The notes: a model not told the origin generated them from the sequence alone. 64,000 nt of DNA from Escherichia coli (GCF_024502345.1 NZ_JALDNN010000001.1); one strand, 5' to 3'; numbered from the stretch's first letter, positions 28,115 through 36,748 are shown. Made by a program: numbers and translations.

Positions 28115-28159
28115 TGGCGCGCCCTGCAGGATTCGAACCTGCGGCCCACGACTTAGAAG
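28115..28159 (-). repeat. Prophage att repeat: 45-bp copy of the 3' end of tRNA-Arg (argU)
   Basis: tggcgcgccctgcaggattcgaacctgcggcccacgacttagaag is identical to the 3' 45 nt of the complete tRNA at 36672-36748. Confidence 0.85.
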
Positions 28160-28581
28160 TTCCTAGAACGACATTTTAAGTCAACAAATTACCGCGCCAT
28201 CTCTGCGCTCATACGTCCCACTACCTCAAAACATGTAAAGCCTTGCAAGCCATTGTGAGGCCTTATGTGTCTCAGTTTTGTCCCTCTTTTTTGTACTAAA
28301 AAACATAGCAATTGAGGATAAACCTCATGCTATTTTCGCTTATATGCCTTTAAAGGCATGGCGCTTAAATAGATAAAAACACCACAAAATCATAAAAAAC
28401 CACACAGTAAAACCGCAACATAAAACAATAACAGATAATTAAACCAAAAACAGATAGCGCATTGTGATAATCATTCAATACTAAACAAAATATAAACAGT
28501 GGAGCAATATGTGATTGACTCATTAAGTTAGATATAAAAAATACATATTCAATCATTAAAACGATTGAATGGAGAACTTTT

Positions 28582-28832
28582 ATGCGGGCGAAACTTCTGG
28601 GAATAGTTCTGACAACCCCTATTGCGATCAGCTCTTTTGCTTCTACCGAGACTATATCGTTTACTCCTGACAACATAAATGCGGACATTAGTCTTGGAAC
28701 TCTGAGCGGAAAAACAAAAGAGCGCGTTTATCTAGCTGAAGAAGGAGGCCGAAAAGTCAGTCAACTCGACTGGAAATTCAATAACGCTGCAATTATTAAA
28801 GGTGCAATTAATTGGGATTTGATGCCCCAGAT
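28582..28832 (+). pseudogene. ompT: ompT 5' fragment (outer membrane protease VII), truncated after ~83 codons by IS903-like element
   Basis: MRAKLLGIVLTTPIAISSFASTETISFTPDNINADISLGTLSGKTKERVYLAEEGGRKVSQLDWKFNNAAIIKGAINWDLMPQ then IS inverted repeat at 28833. Confidence 0.85.
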
Positions 28833-29889
28833 GGCTTTGTTGAATAAATCGAACTTTTGCTGAGTTGAAGGATCAGATCACGTATCTTCCCGACAACGCA
28901 GACCGTTCCGTGGCAAAGCAAAAGTTCAAAATCACCAACTGGCCCACCTACAATAAAGCCCTCATCAACCGTGGCTCCATAACTTTCTGGCTGGATGATG
29001 AAGCTATTCAGGCCTGGTATGAGTCAGCAACACCTTCTTCACGAGGCAGACCTCAGCGCTATTCTGACCTTGCCATCACGACTGTGCTGGTCATTAAACG
29101 CGTATTCAGGCTGACCCTGCGCGCTGCGCAGGGCTTTATTGATTCCATTTTTTCTCTGATGAACGTTCCGCTACGCTGCCCGGATTACAGCTGTGTCAGC
29201 AGGCGGGCAAAGTCGGTTAATGTCAGTTTCAAAACGCCCACCCGGGGTGAAATCGCACACCTGGTAATTGATTCCACCGGGCTGAAGGTCTTCGGTGAAG
29301 GCGAGTGGAAAGTCAAAAAGCATGGCCAGGAACGCCGCCGTATCTGGCGTAAGCTGCATCTCGCCGTTGACAGTAAAACACATGAAATCATCTGCGCTGA
29401 CCTGTCGCTGAACAACGTTACGGACTCAGAGGCCTTCCCCGGGTTAATCCGGCAAACCCACCGGAAAATCAGGTCAGCCGCCGCCGATGGCGCTTACGAT
29501 ACCCGGCTATGTCACGATGAACTGCGGCGTAAGAAAATCAGCGCGCTTATCCCTCCCCGAAAAGGTGCGGGTTACTGGCCCGGTGAATATGCAGACCGTA
29601 ACCGTGCAGTGGCTAATCAGCGAATGACCGGGAGTAATGCGCGGTGGAAATGGACAACAGATTACAACCGTCGCTCGATAGCGGAAACGGCGATGTACCG
29701 GGTAAAACAGCTGTTCGGGGGTTCACTGACACTGCGTGACTACGATGGTCAGGTTGCAGAGGCTATGGCCCTGGTACGAGCGCTGAACAAAATGACGAAA
29801 GCAGGTATGCCTGAAAGCGTGCGTATTGCCTGAAAACACAACCCGCTACGGGGGAGACTTACCCGAAATCTGATTTATTCAACAAAGCC
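28833..29889 (+). mobile_element. IS903-like insertion sequence (IS5 family), copy 1, no target-site duplication
   Basis: 1057 bp; terminal inverted repeats ggctttgttgaataaatcg / cgatttattcaacaaagcc; flanks gccccagat vs tcgctgaaa differ. Confidence 0.85.
28865..29833 (+). CDS. IS903-family transposase
   Basis: 322-aa ORF ...[39 protein letters not shown]...; identical to the copy at 56939..57907. Confidence 0.85.
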
Positions 29890-30078
29890 TCGCTGAAAGT
29901 GGAATGTATCCATGGAGAACACTTTATCAGCCGGGAAATAATGCGGGCAACGGTGTTTAATTATATCGAATGTGATTACAATCGGTGGCGGCGGCACAGT
30001 TGGTGTGGCGGCCTCAGTCCGGAACAATTTGAAAACCAGAACCTCGCTTAGGCCTGTGTCCATATTACGTGGGTAGGA
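29890..30078 (+). mobile_element. IS3 right-end remnant (3' end of orfB plus terminal inverted repeat)
   Basis: Encodes [53 protein letters not shown]; ends ...cctgtgtccatattacgtgggtaggatca. Confidence 0.75.
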
Positions 30079-30331
30079 TCACACCTTCTTCCACACTTTC
30101 TGGAACATTTAGGTAACAACCATCTGGATATTGGTGTTGGAACTGGGTTTTACCTTACTCACGTACCTGAGAGTAGTCTGATATCTTTAATGGATTTGAA
30201 CGAAGCTAGCCTGAACGCGGCATCTACAAGGGCTGGGGAATCAAAAATTAAACATAAAATTAACCATTGATGTAGCCCCCTGAAACACCGGACAGTAGCT
30301 GTATCTCCAGATAAGAGATAGGCTTGAATAT

Positions 30332-30727
30332 ATGTCTAACACTAACGCCAATTTTGAGATGACCGGGATCCTGTTAGGGCAAGAAGTCCGTAAACGTAAA
30401 ACTCCTCAGGAGAAGATCGCCATTATCCAGCAGACGATGGAGCCGGGTATGAATGTCTCCCATGTCGCCCGCCTGCATGGTATCCAGCCCAGCCTGCTGT
30501 TTAAGTGGAAGAAGCAATATCAGGAAGGCAGCCTCACCGCCGTTGCGGCTGGAGAGGAAGTCGTTCCTGCTTCTGAGCTTACTGCTGCTCTGAAGCAGGT
30601 CCGGGAGCTTCAGCGCCTTCTGGGCAAGAAAACGATGGAAGTTGAGATCCTGAAAGAAGCCGTGGAGTACGGTCAGTCGCGAAAATGGATAGCGCACGCG
30701 CCCTTGTTGCCAAAGGACGGGGAATAG
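30332..30727 (+). CDS. IS3-family transposase OrfA (HTH)
   Basis: 131 aa, ...[60 protein letters not shown]... similar to IS2 InsC. Confidence 0.8.
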
Positions 30728-31566
30728 CCATGGTCAGCCGGACCATGGGCGTGTCGCGTGCGCAACTGTCACTGCGGATTAACCGTTCTGCCGACTGGCA
30801 GGACAGGCGCTGTAACCGGCGTAATGAAGAAGCAGACGCAGAAATACTGTCGGCTATCCTCAACATTATCAGCGATATGCCGAGTTATGGTTATCGACGC
30901 GTGTGGGGCATCCTGCGCAAGCAACGTCGCACAGAGGGACAGCCACCTGTGAATGCCAAACGGCTTTACAGGATAATGAGCGAGCATAACCTGTTGTTGT
31001 TGCATCACAAACCAGAGCGACCGAAGCGTGAACATAAGGGCAAGATAGCGGTGGCAGAAAGCGATATGCGCTGGTGTTCAGATGGCTTCGAGTTCGGCTG
31101 CGACAACGGCGAAAAACTGCGGGTAACGTTCGCGCTGGACTGCTGCGACCGTGAGGCCATAGACTGGGCAGCAAGCACGGGAGGCTATGACAGTTCGACC
31201 GTGCAGGATGTGATGCTGAGGTCGGTGGAAAAGCGCTTCGGCGACAGGTTGCCCGACACAGCGGTGCAGTGGCTGACGGATAACGGTTCAGCGTATACCG
31301 CGTATGAAACGCGGAGGTTCGCGAGAGAGCTGAATCTGGAGCCCTGCACAACAGCGGTGAGCAGCCCGCAGAGTAATGGCATGGCCGAACGGTTCGTGAA
31401 AACGATGAAAGAAGACTATATCGCGTTCATGCCAAAACCGGATGTGAGAACAGCACTGCGAAACCTTGCAGTAGCGTTCACGCATTACAATGAAAACCAC
31501 CCGCACAGCGCGCTGGGATATCACTCCCCGAGGGAATACCGGCGGCAGCGGACATCGTTAACTTAA
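30685..31566 (+). CDS. IS3-family transposase OrfB (DDE catalytic domain)
   Basis: 293 aa overlapping orfA in another frame; ...[17 protein letters not shown]... Confidence 0.8.
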
Positions 31567-31615
31567 GATACAAAAGCTGTTCGGAGATGGAGGGTCAAGA
31601 TCACATAAAATTAAC

Positions 31616-35497: not shown

Positions 35498-35788
35498 ATG
35501 ACAACCGGCGGCCATCCACCGCCTGAATACGCGCAGAAGTCTTTATATGTTCAGCAGCCCAGCTTACGGGCAGGAGTTTTTATGGTTCATCAACATTACG
35601 GAACGCAGACCGTTAATCGCGGTGCGGTCATGCCAGGAATGCTGGTCAAACGCAAAGATGGTACCTGGACTGCATCAGCTAATTTACGCGGACGACTTTA
35701 TCTGCATCGCGGCATTGAGCGCACTTATACCCGTGACTTGCTCGTGGAAGTTTTTCTCGACGGACGCGGCAACGGTCTGAATCACTAA
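35498..35788 (+). CDS. Hypothetical protein
   Basis: 96-aa ORF; weak SD; no recognisable domain. Confidence 0.3.
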   Translation: MTTGGHPPPEYAQKSLYVQQPSLRAGVFMVHQHYGTQTVNRGAVMPGMLVKRKDGTWTASANLRGRLYLHRGIERTYTRDLLVEVFLDGRGNGLNH

Positions 35789-35863
35789 TCCCCTTTCCTG
35801 TTTTCCGAATCAGCCTGGCATTCCGCGGGCGATTTTTTCACAGCCATTTTCAGGAGTTCAGCC

Positions 35864-36148
35864 ATGAACGCTTATTACATTCAGGATCGTCTTGAGGCTC
35901 AGAGCTGGGCGCGTCACTACCAGCAGATCGCCCGTGAAGAGAAAGAGGCAGAACTGGCAGACGACATGGAAAAAGGCCTGCCCCAGCACCTGTTTGAATC
36001 GCTATGCATCGATCATTTGCAACGCCACGGGGCCAGCAAAAAAGCCATTAGGCGCGATCACTTTCATCTACTCCGTTACAAAGCGAGGCTGGGTATTTCC
36101 CGGCCTTTCTGTTATCAGAAATCCACTGAAAGCACAGCGGCTGGCTGA
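35864..36148 (+). CDS. Hypothetical protein
   Basis: 94-aa ORF with strong SD aggag 8 nt upstream. Confidence 0.5.
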
Positions 36149-36175
36149 GAAGATAAATAATAAACGGGAGGCGGT

Positions 36176-36367
36176 ATGCACAAAGCATCTCCTGTTGAGT
36201 TAAGAACGAGTATTGAGATGGCACATAGCCTTGCTCAAATTGGAGTCAGGTTTGTGCCAATACCAGTAGAAACAGACGAAGAATTTCATACGTTAGCCAC
36301 ATCCCTTTCACAAAAGCTGGAAATGATGGTGGCGAAAGCAGAAGCAGATGAGAGAGACCAGGTATGA
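36176..36367 (+). CDS. Hypothetical small protein
   Basis: 63-aa ORF with SD gggagg upstream. Confidence 0.45.
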   Translation: MHKASPVELRTSIEMAHSLAQIGVRFVPIPVETDEEFHTLATSLSQKLEMMVAKAEADERDQV

Positions 36368-36377
36368 CAACCACTGA

Positions 36378-36656
36378 ATGCATTTTTCTGGCAGCGGGCT
36401 TCATATTCTGTGTGCTTATGCTTTCCGTTTCCATGACCTCAGACACACCTGGGCAAGCTGGCTGATTCAGTCAGGCGTCCCATTATCAGTGCTTCAGGAA
36501 ATGGGCGGATGGGAGTCCATAGAAATGGTTCGTAGGTATGCTCACCTTGCGCCTAATCATTTGACAGAGCATGCGAGGAAAATAGACGACATTTTTGGTG
36601 ATAATGTCCCAAATATGTCCCACTCTGGAATTATGGAGGATATAAAGAAGGCGTAA
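36378..36656 (+). pseudogene. Tyrosine integrase 3' remnant (C-terminal catalytic region only)
   Basis: ...[40 protein letters not shown]... (R-H-R-Y motif region); frame opens right after a stop; abuts tRNA. Confidence 0.8.
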
Positions 36657-36671
36657 CTGATTGAATTGTAA

Positions 36672-36748
36672 TGGCGCGCCCTGCAGGATTCGAACCTGCG
36701 GCCCACGACTTAGAAGGTCGTTGCTCTATCCAACTGAGCTAAGGGCGC
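36672..36748 (-). tRNA. argU: tRNA-Arg (anticodon UCU)
   Basis: 77-nt cloverleaf, reverse complement GCGCCCTTAGCTCAGTTGGATAGAGCAACGACCTTCTAAGTCGTGGGCCGCAGGTTCGAATCCTGCAGGGCGCGCCA. Confidence 0.93.

Follow-up and report, generated by a model that had tools for sequence, protein, structure and literature searches.

The question raised by this locus is what kind of element lies beside the argU tRNA gene of this Escherichia coli strain, and how much of it survives. Lindsey, Mullin and Walker are said to have described in 1989 a cryptic lambdoid prophage, DLP12, at argU of E. coli K-12, and a preliminary description of the 64-kb stretch of DNA analyzed here (the window) placed a degraded prophage of that type at the same gene. 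We conclude with high confidence that the island is what remains of a DLP12-family lambdoid prophage at argU, eroded by insertion sequence (IS) events and deletions. The interpretation of the earlier reader is supported, and the kind of element is already known.

Boundaries of the island at argU

The window holds a single tRNA gene, a tRNA-Arg with anticodon TCT detected by ARAGORN, in agreement with Rfam, and it is complete, as had been described. It overlaps one of two copies of a direct repeat:

36672..36748, minus strand: argU, complete tRNA-Arg(UCU) (ARAGORN, Rfam)
36670..36716, no strand: attL core, 47 bp, overlapping the argU 3' end
28113..28159, no strand: attR core, 47 bp, identical to the argU 3' end (45 nt of the tRNA followed by AA)
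28160..28581, no strand: prophage-side arm beside attR, upstream of ompT, with putative P-arm sites

The repeat finder paired 28113-28162 with 36670-36719, the first 47 nt being exact (AATGGCGCGCCCTGCAGGATTCGAACCTGCGGCCCACGACTTAGAAG). The repeat is thus the exact copy of the tRNA 3' end that had been reported, with a length of 47 rather than 45 bp (two extra bases). An exact repeat of 47 bp within 64 kb cannot be of chance origin, and the remaining direct repeats of at least 40 nt in the window are only IS1, REP-like or other short repeated elements. PMC6379469, citing Lindsey et al. 1989, gives a 47-bp attR at argU and the DLP12 locus as occupied in 74% of 638 genomes.

An empty site was assembled in silico from the left flank, one core and argU-fimZ, and searched in E. 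coli genomes. In many of them it was recovered as a single ungapped piece with 100% coverage and 99.9% identity, and at least 80% of the query was covered in 2,520 of 5,426 genomes. Because the empty site is found uninterrupted in many E. coli genomes, the 47-bp repeat is the exact island boundary. The argU-fimZ/envY junction of prophage-free genomes closes at the core, as the proposal of an att core implied; a repeat lying away from the boundary in island-free genomes had been named in advance as evidence against that proposal, and the empty-site search places it on the boundary.

The interval between the repeats measures 8.56 kb, of which 3.35 kb (39%) is insertion sequence and ~5.2 kb is phage-derived. 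This IS content, together with two IS elements devoid of target duplications, could suggest a repeat unrelated to integration, either a stray fragment of a tRNA or the product of an IS-mediated duplication, in a generic IS-rich variable island. However, the precise closure of the empty site at the repeat refutes this reading, the identical core brackets prophages of 21.3 kb and 47.6 kb at the same locus, and what is left of the integrase gene abuts the tRNA, as it does in K-12; we give this reading practically no credence.

Remaining phage genes and insertion sequences

All components listed in the preliminary description (a truncated ompT, four IS elements, an immunity region and the end of an integrase gene) are present between the att sites. 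Apart from the immunity region, they are:

28582..28832, plus strand: ompT', omptin protease gene truncated by IS903 after its first 83 codons (Pfam Omptin 1-60/283)
28833..29889, plus strand: IS903B-like element, IS5 family, 1057 bp, terminal inverted repeats, no target duplication (adjacent deletion)
29890..30081, plus strand: IS3 right-end fragment, last 192 bp, InsF C-terminus
30082..30267, plus strand: ybcY' part 1 (class I SAM-dependent methyltransferase), first ~43 codons gone
30268..31603, plus strand: IS2-like element, IS3 family, 1336 bp, simple insertion with a 15-bp target duplication
31604..32226, plus strand: ybcY' part 2 (stop at 31972) and its natural downstream sequence
32227..32994, plus strand: IS1, 768 bp, no target duplication
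32995..33093, plus strand: pin', DNA invertase gene (recombinase family) of which the last ~32 codons remain
33192..33388, minus strand: tfa', C-terminal ~65 codons, tail fibre assembly (Pfam Caudo_TAP 76-130/131)
33389..33427, minus strand: cro', first 13 codons of a cro-like gene, joined to tfa' through 2 bp of microhomology (CT)
35864..36049, plus strand: gam', first 62 codons (Pfam Gam 1-73/98)
36176..36367, plus strand: DUF1382 gene, 63 aa, full length
36422..36656, plus strand: int', IntD-type tyrosine integrase gene reduced to its last 77 codons (Pfam Phage_integrase 125-171/172)

The features expected of a DLP12-family element were found: insertion at the argU 3' end with duplication of the 47-bp core and an intact tRNA, an IntD-type integrase convergent with argU and ending beside the tRNA (77 codons left), and lambdoid genes in lambda order between the att sites. 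This order (int', DUF1382, gam', kil, PL/OL, rex slot, cI, OR, cro', tfa', pin', ybcY', ompT') is colinear with that of the prophage of strain OkiPb01695 and of K-12. The complete integrase and excisionase that characterize an inducible phage are absent, int retaining 77 of 387 codons, and the interval between the att sites yielded neither an ORF nor a match corresponding to O/P, Q, terminase, head, tail or the lysis cassette. The replication, lysis and virion genes are all gone because the deletion at the tfa'/cro' junction removed them. With no functional int, no xis and no O/P, lysis or structural genes, the remnant cannot by itself excise, replicate or produce phage.

The integrase remnant is 99.4% identical to the K-12 intD 3' end and stops at 36656, which leaves 13 bp to the att core and 15 bp to the tRNA 3' end. 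Its reported position against the tRNA therefore stands, whereas the reported length of ~90 codons does not: a 92-codon ORF is present, but it starts in unrelated sequence upstream of the deletion junction, and 77 codons are integrase-derived. The region that separates DUF1382 from int in relatives is deleted, and a further deletion after gam' took bet, exo, the remainder of gam and the beginning of DUF1317. At the other end, 27900-28832 shows 97.6% identity to K-12 DLP12 and 99.3% to the argU remnant of strain MS6192, and 31604..32226 is 99.8% identical to NT1N25 L007 8862-9485. An Rfam IS009 'sRNA' match at 33226-33426, across the tfa'/cro' junction, was discarded, being essentially conserved tfa 3' coding sequence with an unaligned insert beyond the junction.

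Among the insertion sequences, the IS903B-like element is 98.7% identical to the annotated IS903B of NT1N25, the IS3 fragment is 99.5% identical to the end of K-12 IS3C, and IS1 stands in place of 1,335 bp comprising ynaM, ydfK and most of pin. A literature search for 15-16-bp target duplications in the IS3 family found nothing. The window holds a second, identical IS903 copy at 56883-57939, inverted relative to that at 28833-29889. We rejected an inversion between the two copies, given the clean 9-bp target duplication of the second (CCATGCCCG) and a gene order colinear with K-12.

All junctions are IS ends or 2-3 bp microhomologies, and the reduction by IS-mediated deletions that had been proposed can be followed junction by junction. 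In the likely course of events, an IntD-type tyrosine integrase put the phage into the argU 3' end; because the phage att carries a copy of the tRNA 3' end, the tRNA stayed whole and the core was duplicated, with attL inside argU and attR beside envY. The prophage would then have shrunk from roughly 47 kb to ~5.2 kb of phage DNA plus 3.35 kb of IS. One large illegitimate deletion from tfa to cro probably removed the replication, nin/Q, lysis, head and tail genes. In the early-left arm, two smaller deletions would account for the loss of gam-bet-exo in one case and of the xis region together with most of int in the other. A deletion between mid-ompT and ybcY, associated with IS903, would have left the stranded IS3 end and an IS1-associated deletion would have removed ynaM-ydfK-pin, while the IS2-like element appears to be a simple insertion into ybcY.

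Relatives and ancestry

In K-12, an identical 47-bp core brackets the 21.3 kb from 564755 to 586056 ('cryptic prophage DLP12' in RefSeq). The two elements share their flanks (fimZ-argU and, at the opposite end, envY-ybcH), an int 3' end convergent with and abutting argU, and ompT, ybcY and tfa on the attR side, and both are defective and riddled with IS. Identity to K-12 DLP12 over int', ompT', ybcY' and tfa' is 94.6-99.5% and, with the common core and flanks, bears out the DLP12-type assignment. They differ in size (8.56 kb here versus 21.3 kb), in IS set (IS903, IS2-like and IS1 here versus complete IS3 and IS5 in K-12) and in ompT, truncated here unlike in K-12. The nin/Q/lysis block, emrE, ybcK, nmpC, nohD and appY are present in K-12 and absent here, whereas the cI-OR/OL-kil-gam' region is kept here and lost in K-12. 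The earlier reader was right to describe K-12 DLP12 as devoid of the repressor: it lacks this region, since K-12 gives no match to 33389-36421. Alignment to K-12 DLP12 and other argU prophages, suggested as a check, returned a DLP12-type layout with the immunity region in relatives. Retention of the repressor is not unusual, the region being present in many argU prophages and inducible phages of E. coli.

The closest match to this region is in strain OkiPb01695, in a near-complete lambdoid prophage of ~47.6 kb that extends from int through heads and tails to attR and has the same 47-bp core. Over 33384-36050 the identity is 99.9%, with 2 mismatches in 2,667 nt, too few to judge whether selection keeps cI. 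The inducible lambdoid phages PhiR68_2, PhiR70_1, 4A7 and Perceval are 96-98.4% identical over a shared ~71% of the immunity/early-left region. OkiPb01695 and PhiR68_2 have the same annotated order (int ... exo-bet-gam-kil, rex slot, cI, cro). Unlike the remnant, OkiPb01695 and the phages have a complete int as well as cro, the red genes, O, P and a YdaT-domain gene, which is labelled cII in PhiR68_2. Q, lysis, head and tail genes are further present in OkiPb01695, and of all this the remnant keeps about 11%.

Other argU remnants with the same att pair, for example those of MS6192, c1-17 and NT1N25, decayed independently. They resemble the present one in carrying IS1/IS903/IS66-type insertions, a truncated int and an ompT that is either truncated or interrupted, but their breakpoints differ from those here; the IS903 in NT1N25 ompT, for example, lies at another position and is a simple interruption. 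A shared int truncation with MS6192-type remnants, considered on the basis of 100% identity from 36422, was rejected, the MS6192 int' being ~60 nt longer upstream. The exact layout is found in no complete RefSeq E. coli genome; the sole near-identical record found was the draft GCA_050022275.1 (99.99% over 10.3 kb), and the exact breakpoints are common to both. A Shigella origin, to which the IS load and the loss of ompT might point, was not established, and the flanks show 99.9% identity to E. coli.

The two arms of the island have different closest relatives: the attR-side pieces are nearest to K-12 and NT1N25 (94.6-99.8%) and the int side to OkiPb01695 (99.9%), whose own attR side bears other cargo than that of the 8.56-kb remnant. 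Lambdoid phages are notoriously mosaic, and the island could be chimeric, built from two argU prophages that followed one another or recombined. A K-12-like remnant would then have given the attR side (ompT, ybcY, pin, tfa) and another lambdoid phage, later, the int-side immunity, by homologous recombination or by tandem integration then deletion. We regard this as improbable: the window has one att pair, strain C8 holds both arm types ~36-43 kb apart in a single argU prophage region, and tfa and cro are joined by a simple deletion with 2 bp of microhomology. The ancestor could itself be mosaic, since no single reference genome has both arms at near-identity, but even a real mosaic ancestry would not change the identity of the element as a DLP12-family remnant.

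The immunity region and its significance

The best-preserved part of the remnant lies between cro' and gam':

33461..33501, no strand: OR, pair of 16-bp operator-like sites (AATAGCAANNNGTNTT) with a spacing of 25 bp
33538..34230, plus strand: cI-type repressor, 230 aa, full length, HTH and S24 peptidase
34313..34576, plus strand: orf87, phrog_4231 (family of unknown function), rex-like slot downstream of cI
34589..35032, plus strand: orf147, phrog_3556 (family of unknown function), rex position
35107..35130, plus strand: terminator-like hairpin after the cI-orf87-orf147 block
35262..35304, plus strand: OL/PL, two operator-like sites overlapping a promoter-like TTGATA-17-TATTAT
35582..35788, plus strand: kil, cell division inhibitor, 68 aa, full length, downstream of PL (phrog_294)

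This arrangement, a cI-type repressor between OR and OL operators with PL overlapping OL, is in sequence that of a lambda-type immunity region. Four of the five operator-like matches in the window fall at OR and OL, with 0.32 expected by chance; the repressor has the Ala-Gly cleavage site and Ser/Lys motifs, and kil has an annotated homologue. Judged from these elements, the immunity module apparently still looks functional. If expressed, cI would repress PL and thereby silence kil, and it would block homoimmune phages; its SOS-induced cleavage would be predicted to derepress kil.

The full-length state of cI, the operators, PL, both ORFs and kil, while nearly all else is broken, raises the idea that cI-orf87-orf147 is a domesticated defense or addiction module kept for phage exclusion or kil restraint. 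Precedents for such modules are lambda rexAB, DicA/DicB in Qin and RacR in Rac. The slot downstream of cI also varies among relatives, as is typical of a moron/defense hotspot: it holds a hypothetical gene and a Ser/Thr kinase in c1-17, and in PhiR68_2 two other hypotheticals different from orf87 and orf147. Against this, neither ORF could be assigned a function by comparison with databases: nothing exceeded the Pfam curated cut-offs, and NCBIfam, PADLOC and PDB sequences gave no meaningful match. We noted, by reading of the sequence, a hydrophobic C-terminal stretch in orf147. The near-identity to an intact prophage indicates that the block may be too young to have decayed, and other argU remnants lose parts of the cI-orf87-orf147/kil block. 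The MS6192 match stops 19 nt before the kil end; since it ends inside kil, cI and kil are not always kept together. Domestication thus seems unlikely. Somewhat less likely still is the specific proposal that cI-orf87-orf147 and PL-kil form a working module, with cI kept to silence kil and orf87 (87 aa) and orf147 (147 aa) a new superinfection-exclusion pair.

In summary, the finding carries little weight beyond annotation, argU being the textbook DLP12 site; a DLP12-type lambdoid prophage at argU is well known and occurs in most E. coli. The remnant is a further example of how IS and illegitimate deletions cut a 47-kb prophage to a few kb while the att pair and the tRNA persist. The strain is without a functional OmpT protease, without appY and without the neighbouring sfm fimbrial operon, and the exact breakpoints could mark the lineage that it shares with the draft genome. 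From what its immunity region encodes, it may remain immune to phages of the same cI specificity.

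Boundaries of the island at argU

The only tRNA that ARAGORN detects in the window is tRNA-Arg(UCU) (36672-36748, minus strand), and Rfam agrees. Its last 45 nt plus 2 bases beyond, AATGGCGCGCCCTGCAGGATTCGAACCTGCGGCCCACGACTTAGAAG, recur as an exact copy at 28113-28159, the two copies being 8,557 bp apart; elsewhere in the window, direct repeats of at least 40 nt are limited to IS1 and to short repeated elements, REP-like or other. The repeat is genuine, well past anything that chance would yield. The exact copy reported in the preliminary description stands, but not its length of 45 bp, as the exact match extends to 47 nt.

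We joined the left flank (27700-28112) to 36670-37100, leaving a single core copy, to make an empty-site query that was run against 5,426 complete E. coli genomes. Many genomes match it as one ungapped piece (100% coverage, 99.9% identity), annotated envY, tRNA-Arg, and fimZ, and at least 80% of the query is covered in 2,520 of the 5,426. Because the site is uninterrupted, with one core copy, in so many genomes, the island starts and stops exactly at the repeat; the preliminary description had proposed this boundary, with such a comparison as its own test. Both flanks are inverted relative to K-12, with cusCFBA, cusRS, nfrBA, ybcH, and envY on the left and fimZ, then farther out folD, cysS, and the pur and all genes, on the right. 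A 47-bp attR and an int/argU overlap are credited to Lindsey et al. (1989) in the summary given by PMC6379469, and in a set of 638 genomes of Escherichia and Shigella, 74% have the DLP12 locus occupied (PMC6379469).

Anatomy of the remnant

The island was mapped by blastn, with junctions read from the junction sequences and genes assigned from protein-family matches; a prime denotes a truncated gene.

Features of the island
28113-28159, no strand: attR core
28582-28832, +: ompT', first 83 codons
28833-29889, +: IS903B-like element, without target duplication and so with an adjacent deletion
29890-30081, +: last 192 bp of IS3
30082-31972, +: ybcY methyltransferase gene, first ~43 codons gone
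30268-31603, +: IS2-like element, 1,336 bp, a simple insertion splitting ybcY
32227-32994, +: IS1, without target duplication
32995-33093, +: pin'
33192-33388, -: tfa', C-terminal ~65 codons
33389-33427, -: cro', first 13 codons, fused to tfa' with 2-bp microhomology at the junction
33461-33501: OR
33538-34230: cI, HTH and S24 peptidase
34313-34576: orf87
34589-35032: orf147
35107-35130: terminator-like hairpin
35262-35304: OL/PL
35582-35788: kil
within 33384-36050: gam', first 62 codons
36176-36367: DUF1382 gene, intact
36422-36656: int', last 77 codons

Every piece is of phage origin, and the junctions account for what has disappeared. Where IS1 now stands, strain NT1N25 has 1,335 bp comprising ynaM, ydfK, and the larger part of a pin-type invertase gene. 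Replication, nin/Q, lysis, and every virion gene were lost at the tfa'/cro' junction. On the int side, everything in gam past its first 62 codons, together with bet, exo, and the start of the DUF1317 gene, was lost in one deletion, which shows TA microhomology, and another deletion of ~2 kb reaches into int, whose stop codon lies 13 bp from the attL core. IS sequence takes up 3,353 of the 8,557 bp, leaving about 5.2 kb of phage-derived DNA, ~11% of the full-length relative in OkiPb01695. A full-length, above-threshold Rfam match to IS009 (RF02111; 33226-33426, minus strand, 177.7 bits) aligns with the conserved 3' coding part of a tail fibre assembly gene and is probably a fragment of that gene, not a separate RNA gene.

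The IS2-like element, an IS3-family member with TG...CA ends whose transposase RefSeq labels just "IS3 family transposase" (WP_089617520.1), has a target duplication of 15 bp, CATAAAATTAACCAT. The duplications at four further 100%-identical copies, located on E. coli chromosomes and on a plasmid, measure 15 or 16 bp, making five of five copies examined. For the IS3 family the usual duplication is 3-5 bp, and searching the literature turned up nothing on 15-16-bp duplications by one of its members.

Elsewhere in the window, a second IS903B-like copy (56883-57939), 100% identical and inverted relative to that in ompT, has a 9-bp target duplication, CCATGCCCG; ORF lengths and the order of the genes suggest that it interrupts a putative allB in an allantoin gene cluster. 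No inversion between the two copies has occurred. A second IS1 (37666-38433) lies directly after fimZ, with folD next at 38601, an arrangement in which all of the sfm fimbrial operon (K-12 sfmA-sfmF) appears to be missing; the fimZ-IS1-folD junction is not a single piece in any complete E. coli genome searched. Around two divergent 372-aa ORFs (5031-6149, minus; 6822-7940, plus), the stretch 4268-6586 contains segments of 90-220 nt that recur at 95-96% identity, with spacings of about 0.5 and 1.85 kb.

The immunity region

Over 33384-36050, a stretch that includes everything from OR to the first 62 codons of gam, the remnant is 99.9% identical to the argU prophage of strain OkiPb01695. The cI and early-left region also occurs in PhiR68_2 and PhiR70_1, induced from ECOR strains, and in phages 4A7 and Perceval (96-98% identity over the shared ~71%). 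The cI translation shows an Ala-Gly site and GDSM/K motifs. Allowing one mismatch, a 16-bp operator-like motif, AATAGCAANNNGTNTT, matches at five places in the 64-kb window (0.32 expected by chance); four of these are in the immunity region, one pair at OR and another at OL, 25 bp apart within each pair. The region's best promoter-like site, TTGATA-17-TATTAT (10/12), overlaps the OL pair and is directed toward kil. A weaker site, TTGACC-17-TAAATT, stops 8 nt short of the cI ATG and would suit a leaderless PRM-type transcript; the lambda PRM transcript is leaderless. Between the PL-like promoter and kil (35305-35581) we saw no N-like ORF, only a leader of ~270 nt, and the OkiPb01695 annotation likewise has no gene between PL and the kil position.

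Directly 3' of cI, orf87 (87 aa, phrog_4231) and orf147 (147 aa, phrog_3556; hydrophobic C-terminal stretch in translation) span 34313-35032, followed by the hairpin, in the position that rexAB occupies in lambda. Cargo in this slot varies among relatives: strain c1-17 has a hypothetical gene and a Ser/Thr kinase, and PhiR68_2 two other hypotheticals. Neither ORF has a meaningful match in PADLOC, Pfam, NCBIfam, or PDB.

Relatives and standing of the element

In K-12, the RefSeq "cryptic prophage DLP12" runs from within argU to between ompT and envY, with the identical 47-bp core at both ends, 21,302 bp apart. It has no match to 33389-36421; the earlier remark that K-12 DLP12 lacks this repressor was therefore correct, and the repressor region missing there is common elsewhere. 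In OkiPb01695 the same core brackets a near-complete lambdoid prophage of ~47.6 kb, in the order int, exo-bet-gam-kil, cI, cro, O, P, nin genes, Q, lysis, terminase, head, tail, tail fibre, ompT'. Other E. coli remnants share the att pair and have other breakpoints: MS6192 retains ompT, hydrolase', IS1, rep', ydaT, a cro-like gene, an S24 repressor, and int'; in c1-17, IS1 lies on the attR side and int carries an IS66-family element; NT1N25 has IS903B in ompT at a position different from ours. The layout of our island is absent from all complete RefSeq E. coli genomes, and an NCBI draft (GCA_050022275.1) matches it at 99.99% identity for 10.3 kb, as far as the ompT::IS903 junction.

By analogy with established lambda biology, integration would have been Int-mediated, an attP that contained the 3' end of the tRNA recombining with attB in argU. 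No function for excision, replication, lysis, or structure is left, and the remnant is presumably immobile by itself; since both att cores and adjoining arm sequence are kept, a related Int and Xis acting in trans might excise it. On the same analogy, cI would still repress PL, and thus kil, and may confer homoimmune superinfection immunity, while RecA-stimulated cI cleavage would derepress kil. The identical core and same flanks in K-12, together with the junction-by-junction map, support the initial view of a DLP12-type prophage reduced by decay: the element is a more extreme decay state of a textbook prophage, of a kind already known.
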